Of a stretch of DNA of 11,709 bases, positions 1,521-11,709 are shown piece after piece. The DNA comes from a virus. The first letter of the stretch is position 1; every line of letters starts with the position of its first letter. Location of the stretch: the UHGV virus genome UHGV-0058547; one strand, 5' to 3'. The notes beneath the pieces were generated by a model that saw only the letters and a list, made by a program, of their open reading frames with translations, did no database searches and had not been told where the DNA came from. A program made the translations under genes and the position numbers.

Positions 1521-2615
1521 TTAATGCCAGCTACTGGCGTGCGAAATACGGTTGTAATCGAAAATAAAACCTTTCTCATAAATCCATAAGGGGATTTCCG
1601 CTGGCTTGGCTTCCAGCGTTCTTATTAGCGGAACAACGTTATTAGAGTCTGGTGAATCACAATAGAAATTAATATCGATACCGAACGAAAGCAATTCTCT
1701 TCTATGGCGATAAAAAGTGTTATGAGGTAACATTTCTTTCATGTTAGCCCCTTGTTTCCAAAGTAAATAAGTTGACTGTATTTTTCTTGGCAGTTTCGTT
1801 ATTTTTTCATCACTTAAAATAGCATTCTGATTCATTTCTATTCTCCCTACATATTCAGAGAATAATTGACGTGGTGTTTTCATATTCCAGTTAGCGCCAA
1901 GCGTTAAATTTAAATCAATAAGCTCAGTTGTTCTTAATGTTAATTCAATACGTAATTTATCTTTCGTCCAGTCCAGTAACCCGGCTCGTACAAACTCTTC
2001 GGCTATCTGGTGCCCTTTTTTACCAGAAACGTGTTCATCATATTTTGAATAAAATTTCAGACTCCATCGACGGGAGTTTTTACCTAAATAAACTGTACCG
2101 CCTTTCCCACATGCGCGACCATGGCGTGTTTTAGCTTTAAATTCGGCGGCATAAAGCCATGATCTGACATTTTCCAGCGTAGATAATGAATACATGTAAT
2201 TAATGTCAATACGTGAAATTTTATACTGACCTGCCATAACGGCTTTATAAGACGCTAAATCATGAGGAATATTCAATAAGGATAAAATCCTGGCATAGAC
2301 CGTCAACATGAGCCCTTGTATATCATCCGACCCAACAACAGAATGCCCCTGCAGAAACTTGGAAGGATTACCATCAATGTACAAATGTGTCGCTTTACCT
2401 TCGCCATTAGATCCTATCGATCGTACTTTCATCGTTGCTTCATGCGAACCGCGAACAGTCAGTCGCTTAACGGTTTCCCACTCAATTGCACCGTCAGCAT
2501 CAACGCTGACAACACTCCCCGCCGGAAGCGGTTTGTGTGTGCAAGGGAAAATCCCGGTAAGCCAATCGATCACGAATAAATCCTCAAAATTACAAAAATG
2601 ACGACTTACTAACAC
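1521..2615 (-). CDS. gII: Rolling-circle replication initiation protein pII
   Basis: 364 aa. GNPSKFLQGHSVVGSDD and SNNVVPLIRT align with M13 pII KASPAKVLQGHNVFGTTD and CNNVVPLVRF (recalled). The only in-frame start after the upstream stop is GTG at 2613-2615, with no obvious SD, so the start is uncertain. An in-frame internal start for a pX-like product is possible but not resolved. Confidence 0.85.
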   Translation of the reverse strand: MLVSRHFCNFEDLFVIDWLTGIFPCTHKPLPAGSVVSVDADGAIEWETVKRLTVRGSHEATMKVRSIGSNGEGKATHLYIDGNPSKFLQGHSVVGSDDIQGLMLTVYARILSLLNIPHDLASYKAVMAGQYKISRIDINYMYSLSTLENVRSWLYAAEFKAKTRHGRACGKGGTVYLGKNSRRWSLKFYSKYDEHVSGKKGHQIAEEFVRAGLLDWTKDKLRIELTLRTTELIDLNLTLGANWNMKTPRQLFSEYVGRIEMNQNAILSDEKITKLPRKIQSTYLLWKQGANMKEMLPHNTFYRHRRELLSFGIDINFYCDSPDSNNVVPLIRTLEAKPAEIPLWIYEKGFIFDYNRISHASSWH

Positions 2616-2742
2616 ATGAGTTCAGTAGTTCATTAGTGTTTTAACATTACACCAGTGAGCTAGTGAGTTCAAGAGGATTGGATGATGTGAGTTCATGAGC
2701 ATGTATACTCACTTCAAATATTGCATTGAACGAGCGTAAAAA
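2616..2742. promoter_or_regulatory. Divergent control region between gII and the RHH gene, with three copies of GTGAGTTCA
   Basis: Copies at 2617-2624 (TGAGTTCA, overlapping the gII start), 2663-2671 and 2687-2695, plus partial GTGAGC at 2655-2660. A TATACT -10-like hexamer sits at 2704-2709 ahead of the RHH ATG at 2743. No -35 element identified. Confidence 0.45.
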
Positions 2743-2925
2743 ATGGCAAAGCGCACGACTTATAACGTGACGGAAGAAAGAAAAATGAAACTAGAACGAC
2801 TGGCTATAAATGCCAGTGTAAAACTAGGAAAAACAATTACATGGACAGAGATTTTAGGTTATCTGATTGATAACTACTCTAAAGATGCAGCAGAAGATCT
2901 CATGTCTGCCAAACAAAAGGATTAA
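2743..2925 (+). CDS. Small ribbon-helix-helix (CopG/Arc/MetJ-like) DNA-binding protein; candidate phage repressor/regulator
   Basis: 60 aa. Basic N-terminus plus alternating strand KRTTYNVT, then helix EERKMKLERLAINASVKLG, loop and second helix ILGYLIDNY: the classic RHH pattern. Transcribed divergently from gII, as rstR is from rstA in CTXphi. Confidence 0.6.
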   Translation: MAKRTTYNVTEERKMKLERLAINASVKLGKTITWTEILGYLIDNYSKDAAEDLMSAKQKD

Positions 2926-2943
2926 GTACCACGAATGGTACAA

Positions 2944-2970
2944 ACGTGCAGTATTACCTACACTGCACGT
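2944..2970 (+). other. Stem-loop (8-bp stem ACGTGCAG / CTGCACGT, 11-nt loop) followed by TCTTTATT; possible attenuator/terminator or protein binding site
   Basis: Direct reading: 2944-2951 is the reverse complement of 2963-2970. Lies between the RHH stop (2925) and the next ATG (3014). Confidence 0.3.
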
Positions 2971-3013
2971 TCTTTATTGTGCGGATTTTGAACAGCAACA
3001 AAGGATCAAAAGG

Positions 3014-3436
3014 ATGAGTAGAAATAACGAAACAAGCGGCGTTGAACTGGTTGTTGTAGGCGTATTTGCTTTCTGTCTGGCAGTTGTTGCCTGGCTAATG
3101 AAAACTTTCGATGTTGAATGGCAAACAGCACTGGAAACTGCGCCTGGCCTGATAGTCTGGCTGCTTGTTGTCGGTGCGGGGATCTTTTTCGGGATCAAAA
3201 TGGAAACTGGCCTTATTCGCTGGGGTGCTCCACTGGCGATCGCCCTTCTGATTCCGGTATTCAAGCCAATTCTTAAGGAAGCTGCCGGAGTTCGTGAAAC
3301 GGGTGGGCTGGTTTTCGATGATATGGTTTCGTGGTATGGAACTGGCTGGGGAATGTCTCTGATGTTCTTCGGGATTCTTATCGTCGGATACGGTCTGCTT
3401 TATTGGTGGCACAGAAGGAATTCATATTATTGGTGA
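3014..3436 (+). CDS. 140-aa integral membrane protein with four predicted TM helices; function unknown
   Basis: ATG at 3014 preceded by AAGGA. Hydrophobic stretches ELVVVGVFAFCLAVVAWLM, GLIVWLLVVGAGIFFGI, APLAIALLIPVF and MSLMFFGILIVGYGLLYWW. The longer track ORF from 2867 lacks an RBS, and its extension is unlikely. Confidence 0.6.
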   Translation: MSRNNETSGVELVVVGVFAFCLAVVAWLMKTFDVEWQTALETAPGLIVWLLVVGAGIFFGIKMETGLIRWGAPLAIALLIPVFKPILKEAAGVRETGGLVFDDMVSWYGTGWGMSLMFFGILIVGYGLLYWWHRRNSYYW

Positions 3437-3502: not shown

Positions 3503-4084
3503 GTGAAGATGAGTATGCAACCGAATGAAGAAATGGACCTCAGGAAATTTTACGCAGAGGGAACAGCTGACTACTTAAAAACTAAAATCAAAAAAAGCGA
3601 ACGACTTTTAAAAATAAACCAATATCTATCATTTGCCCTCCCTGTCCTAGTTGGAGGATACGCATCGGTTGATCACAGCTCCAAATATTTTGATTTTTTA
3701 GTTTGGGGCACAGGGATATTATCAGTGATAGTCTTGCTTTCTAATTTATACACACTGGTCATGAAGACTGATGAAAATTTATCTCGATATCTGGAATCAT
3801 ACTCTTTCAATAAACTCCTAACTGATTTGTATGGCGAACTGTCGAGCATGTTTAAATCAAAGACAGGCAACCAGCAACCCGCTAACCATTTGTTTTCAGT
3901 GATAAAATCAAAAGATGACTTCAATGCCAAGGAAGATGAAAAATATGTTAGCAATAATGATAAGAAACGGATTATGTTCGACATTCTGGTAAAGAAAAAT
4001 AAAGAATGCGTACGTTGCAATAAAATACCGACTAAATTTAACAAGCGGAAAGGTTGCACAAATTGTGGCAATCTCGTGAAATAA
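3503..4084 (+). CDS. 2-TM membrane protein with C-terminal CxxC-x12-CxxC zinc ribbon (SLATT-like topology); function unknown
   Basis: N-terminal helix, then TM hairpin YLSFALPVLVGGYASV / LVWGTGILSVIVLLSNLYTLV, a charged helical region, and C-terminal ECVRCNKIPTKFNKRKGCTNCGN. Start ambiguous between GTG 3503, ATG 3509 and ATG 3515; GAAAGG precedes. Confidence 0.6.
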   Translation: MKMSMQPNEEMDLRKFYAEGTADYLKTKIKKSERLLKINQYLSFALPVLVGGYASVDHSSKYFDFLVWGTGILSVIVLLSNLYTLVMKTDENLSRYLESYSFNKLLTDLYGELSSMFKSKTGNQQPANHLFSVIKSKDDFNAKEDEKYVSNNDKKRIMFDILVKKNKECVRCNKIPTKFNKRKGCTNCGNLVK

Positions 4085-4095
4085 AGGAGAAACAA

Positions 4096-4287
4096 ATGAG
4101 TTATAAAGTAGATCAAGTCAAAGCTCTCTGGCTTCAATTGACTGATGCGGAGAAAAAAGAATTTACAACATATCTTTTTAATGGTGAAAAAAAATCCTTA
4201 CGTGAAGGATTCGAAAGTTTTAGTGTGAATAAAAGCACTACAATGCAATTTGGTGATGCAAACGTCTGCCCTGCTTGCGGAAAATAA
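4096..4287 (+). CDS. 63-aa small protein ending in CPACGK; function unknown
   Basis: AAAGGAGA 5 nt upstream of the ATG at 4096; begins 12 nt after the preceding stop (operon-like); followed by a strong terminator. Confidence 0.5.
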   Translation: MSYKVDQVKALWLQLTDAEKKEFTTYLFNGEKKSLREGFESFSVNKSTTMQFGDANVCPACGK

Positions 4288-4329
4288 AATCTAAAAGATT
4301 TTGGTTCGCACAATGACGTTATGCTAAAG

Positions 4330-4366
4330 AGGCCGCTGCGGGATTCGATTTTCGCAGCGGCCTTTT
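4330..4366 (+). terminator. Rho-independent terminator ending the RHH/membrane-protein operon
   Basis: 11-bp GC-rich stem AGGCCGCTGCG (4330-4340) pairing with CGCAGCGGCCT (4353-4363), 12-nt loop, then TTTT. Confidence 0.75.
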
Positions 4367-4396
4367 CAACATAACGAGTCCTACATTATGCGCACC
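4364..4396 (-). other. dif-like XerC/XerD recombination site (site 2), long central region
   Basis: Minus strand reads GGTGCGCATAA-TGTAGGACTCG-TTATGTTGAAA. E. coli dif is GGTGCGCATAA-TGTATA-TTATGTTAAAT. XerC arm 11/11, XerD arm 9/11, central region 11 nt. Confidence 0.65.
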
Positions 4397-4555
4397 AACA
4401 TAAACCAAGGGAGAATCCAGTGATTTGTGGACATCCTTGTTCTCGCAGAATATGGATGTGCTGAGTCTGGTTGGTTCGCCTAACGGTTGAAATGTCTTGC
4501 GGCCTTCACTGGGCTTGTTGAGTGTTCTGAATGTTCGCTTCAGGAACTGATTCAA

Positions 4556-5647
4556 ATGAAACGATTAATACTTGCTGCGACTGTAATAAGTGCAAGCCTG
4601 CTGCCATTTACCTGTTCGGCAAATGCCGACTCACTGGGTATCAATAAAGACTGCGATAACCATCCTGTCAGCCAGTACGGCATGGACACCATTACCGCAT
4701 TCAGTCAGTACAAGACGGAATCGAAAAAATTTAAAGATGCACTGACTGCGTTCTGCAATAAAGGCAAAACCATGGGCGACATGGGATTTGAAGCTGCCAA
4801 TGCTCACTCTCTTGCTGAAGCAAGGAAATGGACTGACTCCAGTCTTCCGGGGGGAAATGAAGAGCAGAAAAAATTTTCAGCAGCCATGGGGAGCCTGCTT
4901 TACTATGCAATGCTGAATGGATTCTCTGGTTTTGACTATCCCAGGTCGCCCGAGCAAAAAGAAAAATCAGTAAGCACATTTAATCCAAATGAGATATGTG
5001 ATGACATATCATCTAAAGCAGCCAAATATTCAACCTCGAATCTCCCCCCTCAAGTACAGATTTCATTAGCTGAGTGGAATCAAATCAAAGGCGAGTTTCA
5101 GATGGTGTGTTTTGCGGGAGTTATGGCGGGTAACAATCGCCAGTCGGTTGACTCAAAAATATTGGCTGGAATGAATGATATAGGCCCAGAAGTGAATTTG
5201 AGTGCTTATCGTTCTGGTTCGGAATACCCAAAGCCTCGCAGCAAAAACAACACGGAAAAAATTGATGCTACAGCAAGGGAGAAAGCGGCTGCAAAGAAGA
5301 AAGCAGATGCAGCCAGAAAACAAAGTGCCACCAACAAAACAAAGCAGGCTGACGATTATAAATCCAGGAGTGTTCGCCTTGACTCCCCCGATTTTCAACG
5401 CTTTCAGTCTTCACTCAGAAATGAATTTATGCGGCGAATTGGTGATGCGAAGCGTTTTTCAGGAAAAGAATGTTCAATAAATGTCTGGATGTCACAGAAA
5501 GGTGAGGTTCTGTCAGCCAGGAAGGAATCCGGAGATGAAGAGCTTTGCTCTGTGGTATTGCAGGCATCGAAGGGAATGAGGCTTAGCCCTATGAGTAATG
5601 AAGTTTACGGAGTGTTCCGTAATCCATCCCTCAACTTTAAATTCTAG
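4556..5647 (+). CDS. Secreted (signal-peptide) protein with K/A-rich helical linker and C-terminal TolA domain III-like domain
   Basis: Likely start MKRLILAATVISASLLPFTCSANA (signal peptide) at 4556, AGGA 10 nt upstream. C-terminus GKECSINVWMSQKGEVLSARKESGDEELCSVVLQASKGMRLSPMSNEVYGVFRNPSLNFKF aligns with the E. coli TolA C-terminus GKTCTLRIKLAPDGMLLDIKPEGGDPALCQAALAAAKLAKIPKPPSQAVYEVFKNAPLDFKP (recalled). Preceded by a Lys/Ala-rich stretch like TolA domain II. No TM anchor. Confidence 0.7.
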   Translation: MKRLILAATVISASLLPFTCSANADSLGINKDCDNHPVSQYGMDTITAFSQYKTESKKFKDALTAFCNKGKTMGDMGFEAANAHSLAEARKWTDSSLPGGNEEQKKFSAAMGSLLYYAMLNGFSGFDYPRSPEQKEKSVSTFNPNEICDDISSKAAKYSTSNLPPQVQISLAEWNQIKGEFQMVCFAGVMAGNNRQSVDSKILAGMNDIGPEVNLSAYRSGSEYPKPRSKNNTEKIDATAREKAAAKKKADAARKQSATNKTKQADDYKSRSVRLDSPDFQRFQSSLRNEFMRRIGDAKRFSGKECSINVWMSQKGEVLSARKESGDEELCSVVLQASKGMRLSPMSNEVYGVFRNPSLNFKF

Positions 5648-6102
5648 TTCATGCCGGGTAAGAGTCTTCACTTTTGTGGGGATTCTTATTTTCTTTTTGT
5701 TGTTATTGTCAGCTCAAGCCGCATGGCTCTCCTGCGGAGGGCTTAATATTGGGATAATATTGAAACATCAAAGACAGATGCAGATAAGTACAGAAAACCG
5801 ATAATAACAATTAAACAGTAAGTCTGTATAAGAGAATAACAGAATATATAAAAGAATTAACCCCGGTTGGCGATTTGGCGATGGTAACACAGATATTTAA
5901 ATCTGTAAAATGGTTATATTTATTTTTTTATTTACCCACCCTATCGGGTGATTCCGGCGCAGTCCTGACCCTGAGTACGCTCCCTGTAATGCACCATGCG
6001 CAACGCCAGAGTCAGTGGCAATGCAAAGCCATGACTAAGGCCAAAATCACCCCAAAACCGCATACAGGCAGTCAGCGGTCACGATGTAAGCAAAATACGA
6101 GA

Positions 6103-6122
6103 TACTGTATAAATAAACAGCC
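6103..6122. promoter_or_regulatory. LexA (SOS) box-like palindrome TACTGTATAAATAAACAGCC
   Basis: CTGT-N8-ACAG with an AT-rich spacer; 16/20 matches to the E. coli consensus TACTGTATATATATACAGTA. Contains a TATAAA -10-like hexamer. Lies in an 0.8-kb noncoding stretch about 340 bp upstream of the HNH_3-like gene. Confidence 0.5.
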
Positions 6123-6460
6123 CTGCAATTGTCAGGCATATGCGCCCTCTCACACTGACACCCCCCCTGTTCCGCCCTGTTTATTGCATCTGTACAGCCA
6201 TCTGAGCGCATCCGGCTGCAACCTGACGCATTTGCATGTGCCGTATTAATGATGCCACACAGAGCGCCTGACGGTTTGTACCATCATCTGTCACAATTCA
6301 TTGTTTGAAAAATTTTACATTTTATTTTTTGAAGTGATTACATAAATATAATCCATCTCTCCGGCATGAGTGCCTGACTGAAGGTGAATCGAAAAAGAAG
6401 GACCCGCCCCGATTCTTTTTACTCCCTTCCCTTTCAGTTAAATCACGCAGGAGAAATATC

Positions 6461-7408
6461 ATGCCCCGCTACAAAAAAGGTATCCGTAATAATTGCTTTC
6501 ATCAAAATTATACTCATGACGTATTGTTCCCCGGCGCAACATTCAGAACCCGACATAATGGAGAATGCGCCATTCTTGGCCGCTCTGATGATAAATCAAG
6601 GCGAGGCTATTATGTCGTGGAATTCAAAGACAGTGGCATCATCAAGGAAGCCTATGGCTCGCATATTAAAACTGGTTCTGTATCAGACGAAGCTTTTCCA
6701 TCATCGGAGGAAGAACGACGAAAGTTACTGATGACACCAAAATATTACGGCGTCGGATATATTGGTAATGGATGTCATTCAACTATTGAAAACACCCGAA
6801 CACACCAAAGAACGAGAGCATTCATACTCTGGCATAACATGCTGGCAAGGTGCTACATGACAACCAAAGGGAAGCAGTATTTTAAAGGCTACAAAGGTGT
6901 CACTGTATGCGAGCGATGGCATAACTTTCAGAACTTCTGCAATGACCTTCCAAAATTGCATGGCTACAACAAATGGAAGGATAATCCGGGAGAGTATGAG
7001 CTCGATAAGGATTACTCACATCGCCGGATTTATTCTGCTGACACGGTGGCATTTATCAGCACAGAAGAAAATGCCAGGGAAGCTGGATTACGACGCGTTG
7101 CCATGAAGATTCCTTCCGGGCATTATCATGAAATAAATAAAATTCGAGATGAGATATTAATGGAGGCTGAAGATGAATTAAAAAACAATCAAATTCATTA
7201 TGAAGTTGTTCTTGACGGGAATATGAAAGTAATCCTGTGTGAAACTCCTTATGGCACAGTGTTGTTCTGGCCTCTCACAAAAAAGATTCAGCGTAATTGC
7301 TACATGATTGATGGTGATGTACAGGTTTATGTTTATTACCTGCGCTGGCTCATACTTCAGTGGGAAAACAGAAATCCCGACATAAACTGTGTTGCTACAA
7401 CCTGTTGA
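6461..7408 (+). CDS. 315-aa protein with central degenerate HNH_3-like module; putative DNA-binding protein or inactive homing-endonuclease relative
   Basis: AGGAG 7 nt upstream of the ATG. Central motif W-HNM-LARCY ... YFKGYKGVTVCERWHNFQNFCND ... YELDKDYSHRRIYSADTVAFISTEENAR matches the phage HNH_3-family pattern W..M..RC ... YGGRGI.VC..W..F..F ... IDRID.DGNY.P.NCRW.T..EQ..N (recalled), but the canonical catalytic residues are not evident. Confidence 0.6.
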   Translation: MPRYKKGIRNNCFHQNYTHDVLFPGATFRTRHNGECAILGRSDDKSRRGYYVVEFKDSGIIKEAYGSHIKTGSVSDEAFPSSEEERRKLLMTPKYYGVGYIGNGCHSTIENTRTHQRTRAFILWHNMLARCYMTTKGKQYFKGYKGVTVCERWHNFQNFCNDLPKLHGYNKWKDNPGEYELDKDYSHRRIYSADTVAFISTEENAREAGLRRVAMKIPSGHYHEINKIRDEILMEAEDELKNNQIHYEVVLDGNMKVILCETPYGTVLFWPLTKKIQRNCYMIDGDVQVYVYYLRWLILQWENRNPDINCVATTC

Positions 7409-7589: not shown

Positions 7590-7619
7590 ATTTAACATGT
7601 TCAACACATTATGCGCACC
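7590..7619 (-). other. dif-like XerC/XerD recombination site (site 1)
   Basis: Minus strand reads GGTGCGCATAA-TGTGTTGA-ACATGTTAAAT. XerC arm 11/11 to E. coli dif; XerD arm 9/11, with the last 9 nt ATGTTAAAT identical; 8-nt central region. Confidence 0.7.
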
Positions 7620-7657
7620 AATGGTAAGGATGGCGGGAACTGGCGTTACCGGTGCCG

Positions 7658-7891
7658 TCATTGGTCACAGACCGTAATCCACTGGCCCAGGACGTCTTTC
7701 AGGCAATGTTGGCATAAATCCAGTTTTAAGCGATTACTGTCACCAAAAATTGAACCGTATCCAGCTAAGTGATTAACAGACAGAAACTCATTGAACTCAA
7801 TGTCATCTACCACCGTCTTCGCATGGCGACCACAGCGATCGCAGGTCTTCGCACATAACATTACAGTATCGCTGGATGTGAAAAATTGCAT
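7658..7891 (-). CDS. 77-aa Cys-rich protein (CxxxCxxC ... CxxC); putative zinc-binding protein
   Basis: AGGAG 5 nt upstream of the ATG at 7891; six cysteines including C-x2-C pairs at residues 17/20 and 60/63. Same orientation as the phage core, downstream of gIV. Confidence 0.55.
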   Translation of the reverse strand: MQFFTSSDTVMLCAKTCDRCGRHAKTVVDDIEFNEFLSVNHLAGYGSIFGDSNRLKLDLCQHCLKDVLGQWITVCDQ

Positions 7892-11096: not shown

Positions 11097-11709
11097 CACT
11101 CACCCCCTTTGCGAAGCAATGAAGTTAAAGAAGTAAAGACATACCAGAACGTAAGGCAATAAAAAACCCATGAAAGAACATCTTTAATAGTCAGTAATTT
11201 ATCGCAACCAATATCAATCTGATAAACCTCTCCGGGAAAAATAATAAAATCAGAGCAGCCGTTACCATTGGGTAAATTAGGCAGCATAGCACCTTTATTT
11301 AAAAATGCTTCCCATAAAGCACCGTGAGAATCCTTTTCAATTCCCAATTCAGAATCAGCTAAAGTAGAAGCGCCATCTAATTCAGAGTCGCCCTTTCCAT
11401 AACGAGAATCACCACCTGAAGGGTCAGCAAAACGGCCAGCCCCCCGCGTAAGATTGTTAATGGAATCGTCAAGACGATTTATATTATTCCTGGTTTGTTC
11501 ATCGGCATTTTTTTTATCATCTGATGAAGTGTCTTTCTCCGTTAATTTATCATGAATATCGCTGGCTATTTTGGGTGAAGCACCTTCGATCGCAGACTGA
11601 ATATCACCTTTAGAAAGACTGGAACCACTAGAGCCACCGCCAGAACTACCGCCAGAACTACCGCCAGAACTACCGCCAGAACTACCGCCACCGGACTCAC
11701 CACCGGACT
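11096..11709 (-). CDS. gIII: Adsorption/minor coat protein pIII, C-terminal portion (partial; ORF enters from the right edge)
   Basis: Frame is open from the window edge to the TGA at 11096-11098 (translated by hand). C-terminus ...NLPNGNGCSDFIIFPGEVYQIDIGCDKLLTIKDVLSWVFYCLTFWYVFTSLTSLLRKGGE parallels M13 g3p ...ECRPFVFGAGKPYEFSIDCDKINLFRGVFAFLLYVATFMYVFSTFANILRNKES (recalled). Preceded by (GGSS)n and GGES linker repeats. Confidence 0.88.
   Translation of the reverse strand, partial: SGGESGGGSSGGSSGGSSGGSSGGGSSGSSLSKGDIQSAIEGASPKIASDIHDKLTEKDTSSDDKKNADEQTRNNINRLDDSINNLTRGAGRFADPSGGDSRYGKGDSELDGASTLADSELGIEKDSHGALWEAFLNKGAMLPNLPNGNGCSDFIIFPGEVYQIDIGCDKLLTIKDVLSWVFYCLTFWYVFTSLTSLLRKGGE
11641..11688 (-). 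repeat. Four tandem 12-nt repeats (cagaactaccgc) encoding the (GGSS)n linker of pIII
   Basis: Direct reading of 11641-11688; minus-strand translation gives alternating GG/SS. Confidence 0.9.

Follow-up and report, generated by a model that had tools for sequence, protein, structure and literature searches.

The 11,709-nucleotide stretch of viral DNA analysed here (UHGV virus genome UHGV-0058547, hereafter the window) carries three copies of an 8-bp box between the divergently transcribed replication gene gII and a gene for a 60-aa protein of the ribbon-helix-helix (RHH) type. Judging from sequence comparisons, these boxes would be the operators of the 60-aa protein, acting as a phage repressor, a reading to which we give a probability of about 0.8. 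The boxes are conserved, they accompany the RHH gene rather than gII, and the intergenic region is exchanged between phages together with the regulator gene as one cassette. The system is most likely a phage immunity switch of an ordinary kind, and the present predictions are the first map of its binding sites.

The prophage and its divergent control region

The window is about 99% identical to E. coli chromosomal prophages adjoining hipA, with a coverage of 90% in strain C10 and of 65% in UM146 and many others. It is a filamentous (Inoviridae) prophage, circularly permuted or in tandem copy, of the dif-integrating CUS-1/YpfPhi type (PMC4266046), and its minus strand encodes gII, a G5P-type ssDNA-binding protein, coat and attachment genes, a Zot-like gI and a secretin. 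The gII product matches the Pfam families Phage_CRI (E 8.8e-70) and G2P_X_C (E 2.1e-29). In a megablast search of GenBank phages with the whole window, nothing was matched but a short gIV segment, in IKe and PEar phages, and we therefore consider that no close phage genome has been deposited.

Some features of the window lie outside the region studied here. The attachment gene, which encodes g3p, has Gly/Ser-rich linker repeats with periods of 15 and 12 nt; they occupy positions 1-97 and 11624-11705 and run off both ends of the window, which would fit a circular or tandem genome opened within gIII. A degenerate dif-like site on the minus strand (7591-7620, GGTGCGCATAATGTGTTGAACATGTTAAAT), in which the XerC arm is intact, the centre too long and the XerD arm incomplete, is probably attP or a tandem-copy junction, in which case the window would span a circular or prophage-prophage junction. 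Between the regulator module and this junction there is a variable accessory region (3503-7408), including at 3503-4084 a gene that PGAP names ‘mobilome CxxCx(11)CxxC protein’. In a 386-aa cargo ORF on the plus strand (4487-5647), Pfam identifies a TolA C-terminal domain (PF06519, E 6.3e-11), and an internal start, MKRLILAATV..., resembles a signal peptide. Domain III of TolA is the co-receptor of the filamentous phage g3p, and, as a speculation, a phage-borne TolA domain could serve as a decoy or exclusion factor.

The extent of the control region depends on the start of gII, which opens the leftward phage operon. A previous reading of this DNA, made from the sequence only, delimited a 127-bp intergenic region and had its first repeat overlapping the gII start. 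However, PGAP calls gII as 1053 nt (350 aa) in identical prophages, the Pfam Phage_CRI alignment begins at residue 16 of the 364-aa long ORF, a GAGGA motif is suitably placed, and nucleotide homology to the gII of UPphi stops at 2572. On these grounds gII most likely starts at GTG 2573 and not at 2615, and the region consequently measures 169 bp, with no box on the start codon: the first copy sits in the leader, 43 nt upstream of the GTG (Table 1).

The repeat itself had been described as a triple 9-mer. Two exact copies of this 9-mer (GTGAGTTCA) exist at 2663-2671 and 2687-2695, and the repeat is real, but the third copy (ATGAGTTCA, 2616-2624) has one mismatch, and the true unit is the 8-mer TGAGTTCA, found at 2617, 2664 and 2688. 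Three occurrences of any 8-mer in the 169-bp region were obtained in 23 of 20,000 dinucleotide shuffles. The sequence-only reading had also asked about the conservation of the 9-mer; among relatives the 8-bp core is kept, and the first base (G/A) varies. The partial GTGAGC copy that it reported, at 2655-2660, is likewise real and corresponds to the left box of a two-box site. Outside the control region, one additional box at 7792-7799 (minus strand) was taken as a chance occurrence, because it is solitary and its position is not conserved in relatives.

Table 1. Coordinates of the control region and its neighbouring genes in the window. Operators and promoter hexamers are predictions.
Feature	Position	Strand	Details
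gII, replication initiator (Phage_CRI and G2P_X_C)	1521-2573	-	350 aa; start GTG 2573
Divergent control region, gII/RHH gene	2574-2742		Corresponds to CTXphi ig-2; wholly replaced in UPphi
Shine-Dalgarno of gII	2581-2585	-	GAGGA, 7 nt before GTG 2573; read from the sequence
Predicted operator O3	2609-2640		CTAACACA, TGAGTTCA (strong, 2617-2624), GTAGTTCA, TTAGTGTT
Predicted P_gII -10	2644-2649	-	TAATGT on the gII strand
Predicted operator O2	2656-2679		TGAGCTAG, TGAGTTCA (strong, 2664-2671), AGAGGATT; contains P_gII -35
Predicted P_gII -35	2667-2672	-	TTGAAC, inside the strong O2 box
Predicted operator O1	2688-2711		TGAGTTCA (strong, 2688-2695), TGAGCATG, TATACTCA; covers P_RHH spacer and -10
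Predicted P_RHH -10	2704-2709	+	TATACT, abutted by O1
60-aa RHH-type regulator	2743-2925	+	PHROG 2503 (‘hypothetical protein’, ‘unknown function’)
Two DNA hairpins just 3′ of the RHH stop codon	2926-2941 and 2946-2968		DNA fold z = -5.5

Linkage of the boxes to the RHH gene

Exact copies of TGAGTTCA or TGAACTCA are concentrated in the control regions, with 35 in 2.4 kb of intergenic sequence against 3 in the 63.8 kb outside, an enrichment of about 310-fold over 12 sequences (the window and 11 loci). They fall at -119 to -126, -72 to -82 and -48 to -55 from the RHH ATG, and the same pattern is seen in 13 IMG/VR loci. Variation was also counted in five prophages whose gII is of the window type (identity of 90-100% where measured): it affects 2 of 24 strong-box columns versus 51 of 106 columns outside the boxes (Fisher p = 2e-4), and the two represent one coupled GT>AC change that merely inverts the box.

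As an alternative, in part raised before, the repeats could be pII-binding or enhancer elements of the plus-strand origin, and they do adjoin gII. The origins of Ff phages contain repeated pII-binding sequences, and this precedent would favour such a role. However, the boxes and gII dissociate in both directions. RHH homologues 59-98% identical to the window protein carry TGARYTCA boxes, including six loci from Providencia, Citrobacter-like genomes and metagenomes (L009, L011, L013, L015, L016 and L018; 59-86%) whose gII proteins are 27-37% identical, over 42-98 residues only. Thus, exact boxes appear wherever the RHH gene is present, even beside a gII of only about 30% identity. Conversely, UPphi of E. 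coli UTI89 has a gII 86% identical to that of the window, a helix-turn-helix (HTH) regulator, and neither TGAGTTCA nor TGAACTCA upstream. In 113 E. coli genomes the match to positions 2450-2950 consists of the gII coding part only (about 82% identity) and ends at the start codon. Moreover, the box sequence changes with the RHH subfamily, which also argues against pII sites. On this double dissociation we rejected the boxes as origin elements, a role that we now consider very improbable.

A better candidate for the origin is the double hairpin after the RHH gene, which co-varies with the type of gII. Its sequences, GTACCAcgaaTGGTAC and GTGCAGT-N9-ACTGCAC, are kept in every locus with a window-type gII, whichever the regulator or the downstream gene; in UPphi the stem of the first hairpin differs and still pairs, whereas in loci with the other gII type another conserved double hairpin takes their place. 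These hairpins are candidates for a pII-recognised origin or ssDNA signal, like CTXphi ig-1. The nearby sequence at 2965-2980 (CACGTTCTTTATTGTG) resembles the f1 nick site, but it was discarded, as it lies on the strand opposite to gII and is not conserved in loci L006, L020 and L022.

The comparison with UPphi also delimits the exchanged unit. Homology is lost at the start codon of gII. It returns with the hairpin past the regulator stop codon, which marks the right edge of the cassette, and continues into a conserved gene for a 140-aa protein (PHROG 4174, unknown function) present with either regulator type. What has been exchanged between the CUS type and UPphi is exactly the intergenic region plus the regulator, as one cassette. 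The UPphi cassette occupies the same position between gII and the 140-aa gene, and its intergenic region, of similar length (171 bp versus 169 bp), is unrelated to that of the window and has its own repeats. Instead of an RHH protein and TGARYTCA boxes, it holds a 148-aa HTH-domain regulator and, at 4125-4295 of the UTI89 locus (L003), a 27-nt inverted repeat and long TGAGCA/TGCTCA palindromes. The HTH cassette of UPphi is likely a heteroimmune counterpart of the RHH cassette of the window.

Neighbouring genes were read in 17 loci (L009-L022 and L063), and in all of them, as in the window, the regulator gene is divergent from gII and adjoins it. Phage If1 is the exception. Its RHH homologue, an unannotated ORF at 1792-1983 (L065, U02303.1) in the annotated ‘major intergenic region’, does not adjoin gII; it is 58.5% identical to the window protein and 90% to P0075, it has no box array upstream, and a transposase-like ORF348 lies nearby. 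The scan of genome contigs with the RHH alignment yielded 4 loci only.

A different possibility is that the boxes are sites for a host regulator, such as RovA/SlyA, or shared promoter elements, with the RHH protein acting elsewhere. In Y. pestis, RovA is reported to bind the putative promoter region of YPO2274, and its loss raises phage transcription (PMC4266046), which indicates that host factors also act here; in addition, one of the boxes contains a -35 hexamer. Against this, boxes are found in phages of Escherichia, Salmonella, Brenneria, Phytobacter, Scandinavium and Providencia only alongside the RHH gene, and UPphi, which shares the E. coli host, has none. A promoter function leaves unexplained why the 8-mer recurs three times, twice outside any promoter hexamer, and the co-variation of box sequence with the RHH subfamily likewise speaks against a host protein. 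We regard this explanation as unlikely.

The regulator and its predicted operators

For the 60-aa protein there is no match to a curated RHH model, nor to any Pfam family at E <= 10 (HTH families among them), nor to a PDB sequence. Pfam and PDB sequence profiles were thus uninformative about the fold, and structure comparison alone pointed to RHH. The AlphaFold monomer model (pLDDT 76) predicts an extended N-terminus (residues 1-10) followed by two helices (11-28 and 34-59), which is the beta-alpha-alpha order of the RHH fold, and its closest structural matches are the antitoxins MazE, ParD and TacA. A G-x-S/T/N turn between helices A and B is a motif of the RHH family, and it is present as G29-K30-T31, whose T31 never varies in the close family. 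Conservation is highest in the N-terminal strand, where M1, K3, R4 and T6-E11 are invariant among the same proteins, whereas the C-terminal tail varies. A symmetric dimer would agree with the boxes, which have dyad symmetry and tolerate GT/AC flips.

By tblastn, the protein is 40.7% identical over 57 aa (E 4e-6 to 6e-6) to annotated rstR genes of CTXphi strain IB1617 (GQ466611.1, ‘environmental RstR; transcriptional repressor’) and pre-CTX (KR063268.1). It also matches ‘RstR-like’ genes of the Vibrio phages VAI1 and VAI2 (PMC7412436). From these alignments, the 60-aa protein is a true homologue of the environmental RstR allele of CTXphi/pre-CTX, and the early suggestion of a switch analogous to RstR/rstA is thereby supported. 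In the case of YpfPhi, the product of YPO2273, a candidate counterpart of the window ORF, was proposed in a review as an RstR-like regulator ‘homologous to RstR’, and resident YpfPhi confers partial protection against superinfection; in 2014, the role of this putative regulator was still awaiting experimental demonstration (PMC4266046). Our tblastn matches make this proposed homology plausible for this allele class. In a literature search of incomplete coverage we found nothing on these boxes, nor any link between rstR, or this class of RstR, and ribbon-helix-helix proteins. The present analysis would assign a function and a fold to PHROG 2503.

The anatomy of the boxes was obtained by aligning the three sites across 11 non-redundant loci. 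The strong box is an 8-bp dyad, TGARYTCA, with GT, AC or GC at its centre and TGAR (TGAG or TGAA) as half-site, and weaker boxes flank each strong box at O1, O2 and O3 in an exact 8-bp register. The strong box of O3 is kept at its place in the 11 loci, in some of them flipped to TGAACTCA. At O2, TGAGTTCA is invariant and unflipped in 11/11 loci, next to a degenerate left box (TGAnCTnn). O1 shows GT/AC flips in loci L011 and L013 and the palindrome TGAGCTCA in L010, and L013 has a perfect 16-bp tandem, TGAACTCATGAGTTCA. Flips are seen at O1 and at O3 and in no locus at O2, whose GTTCAA reads TTGAAC on the other strand and would also serve as the -35 of P_gII. The distance between O1 and O2 is 24-25 bp in all loci, and since it reaches 25 bp in some of them, a continuous 8-bp register across O2 and O1 is not universal. 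A pentamer AGAGG (2672-2676) directly after the strong O2 box is kept in 9/11 loci; it may be a weak third box, given that AGAG resembles TGAG, or something else.

A generic scan for sigma-70 promoters and terminators over 2400-3100 gave no promoter at its threshold, and we infer the promoters instead from their conservation across loci. All window-class RHH loci examined (the 11 non-redundant loci and two IMG/VR loci, duplicates of two of these in the intergenic region) present TTGAAC, 17 nt and a TAnnnT-type hexamer, the latter as TAATGT, TAAGGT, TATGTT, TATCTT, TATTAT, TAGTAT or TTATAT, which points to a conserved, sigma-70-like leftward promoter, P_gII. For the rightward promoter, P_RHH, the -10 is TATACT, TAGAAT, TAAGAT or TATAAT at the same place in relatives, all of them TAnnnT, and no good -35 was found. 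A TG directly abuts both -10 hexamers, which is not the canonical extended -10 position. No LexA box is present; the best match has 5/8 core positions. Transcription would start near 2637 (minus strand) from P_gII and near 2716 (plus strand) from P_RHH. Relative to these promoters, O2 would lie on the -35 and spacer of P_gII, O3 downstream of its -10 (at about +5 to +28 of the predicted gII transcript) and O1 on P_RHH. These detailed overlaps are somewhat less secure than the operators themselves, although still rather probable.

With this arrangement, the control region would work as an immunity region with operator clusters O3, O2 and O1. P_gII would drive gII and then the phage production genes behind it. 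One RHH dimer per box would contact the DNA through the N-terminal beta-ribbon (K3-R4-T5-T6-Y7-N8-V9-T10), and binding of adjacent dimers would be cooperative, like that of MetJ on tandem met boxes. Occupancy of O2 and O3 would block P_gII and shut off the replication and assembly operon, and that of O1 would autoregulate the RHH gene. The outcome would be prophage maintenance and superinfection immunity, with the cassette setting the immunity specificity, and a RovA/SlyA-type host control may act on top.

The direction of this regulation could also be different, with the RHH protein binding the boxes mainly as an activator or bifunctional switch, for example activating P_RHH, with its weak -35, from O2 in the manner of lambda CI at PRM, or else as an antitoxin-like autoregulator unrelated to immunity. 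Both the lack of a good -35 in P_RHH and the antitoxins among the nearest structural matches are in line with these variants. Nevertheless, the gene downstream is not toxin-like, but the 140-aa PHROG 4174 gene; the position of O2 over the -35 of P_gII argues for repression of gII; and the homologues are annotated as the CTXphi repressor RstR. Such variants are improbable in our opinion, and repression of gII from the boxes is preferred.

Known systems and the wider regulator family

The closest functional parallel is the rstR/ig-2/rstA module of CTXphi, which Kimsey and Waldor reportedly characterised for the El Tor HTH allele. As in the window, a small regulator is divergent from a rolling-circle replication gene, with three intergenic operators (putative ones in the window), the regulator and the intergenic region are swapped as a heteroimmune cassette, and the phage integrates at dif. 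The El Tor RstR is an HTH protein whose large operators are bound by tetramers, and PrstA is also controlled by LexA; the window differs in the predicted RHH fold, the 8-bp dyad boxes and the absence of a LexA box. We would classify the module as of RstR/ig-2 type in function and, for one allele class, also by homology.

In its design, the predicted operator array resembles that of MetJ, the E. coli RHH repressor that binds with one dimer per met box and cooperative neighbours, in that 8-bp dyad-symmetric boxes are arranged head-to-tail in an 8-bp register. The window protein has no match to MetJ in Pfam, and this is a likeness of design and not of family membership; the box is TGARYTCA instead of the met box AGACGTCT, the arrays lie at divergent phage promoters, and we know of no co-repressor for the window protein. 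Other small RHH repressors, such as Arc and Mnt (P22 immI) and those of ParG/omega type, also bind short repeated subsites as cooperative dimers, with ACTC boxes of 8-bp period for ParG and a single 21-bp operator for Arc. They share with the window the control of divergent or adjacent promoters by a small RHH repressor, whereas the operator architecture and the replicon types are other and no sequence homology is detectable. The operator design is thus reminiscent of MetJ met-box arrays and ParG/omega repeats, outside those families.

The full HMM search for distant relatives of the regulator gave 64 cluster representatives, which differ in the predicted beta-strand. In viral contigs, their loci again contain divergent gII genes, many of them starting MFFDWLTIEQDFG-like, and repeated motifs near -120 to -145, -70 to -100 and -45 to -60. 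A scan of viral contigs for subgroup A4 produced no loci. None of the distant loci examined in viral contigs has boxes of the window type. Instead, the predicted strand KRTTMAIT occurs with GCATGTA or GCATGCA, KRTTISIS and QRTTMSIS with ATTCATG or GAATGCA, KRKNLGVP with GCTCACA (TGTGAGC), and KYTSLRV with CATGTAT(G/A)C, while the rstR-env region of pre-CTX has GCATGC-type repeats. A change of box with the regulator subfamily at a fixed geometry is what should be expected of the operators of that regulator. Together with the association of the boxes with the RHH gene and the swap of the cassette, this supports the operator role that had been suggested for the repeats. Nevertheless, the relation between strand and box is not one-to-one, because the KRTTMAIT and KYTSLRV classes both have similar ATGTATGCA-type boxes.

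These observations allow a broader, more tentative hypothesis, which we consider possible but on balance doubtful: a widespread and unannotated family of inovirus RHH repressors, with a fixed three-operator geometry, boxes that follow the DNA-facing residues of the beta-strand, and a mobile cassette. Candidate pairs of strand and box would be R-T-N with TGARYTCA, R-T-A with ATGCATGTA, and R-T-S with ATTCATG. The family may include the environmental RstR allele of CTXphi and the unannotated ORF of If1, and its cassette may move freely between unrelated replication modules. If this hypothesis is true, sequence could tell the immunity type of filamentous prophages in enterobacteria, Yersinia and Vibrio. 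Within the same hypothesis, the repressor of the window may also form a MetJ-style polymer in 8-bp register over 2656-2711, silencing both promoters together.

Extraintestinal pathogenic E. coli and pandemic Yersinia pestis harbour prophages of the CUS-1/YpfPhi type. For these prophages, the three predicted operators, two promoters and a candidate recognition strand are predictions at the base-pair level, which make the question of the regulator directly testable. The regulator and its control region would travel as a portable immunity cassette, present in phages whose replication proteins are unrelated, and its exchange bears on which filamentous prophages may coexist in a host or exclude one another.
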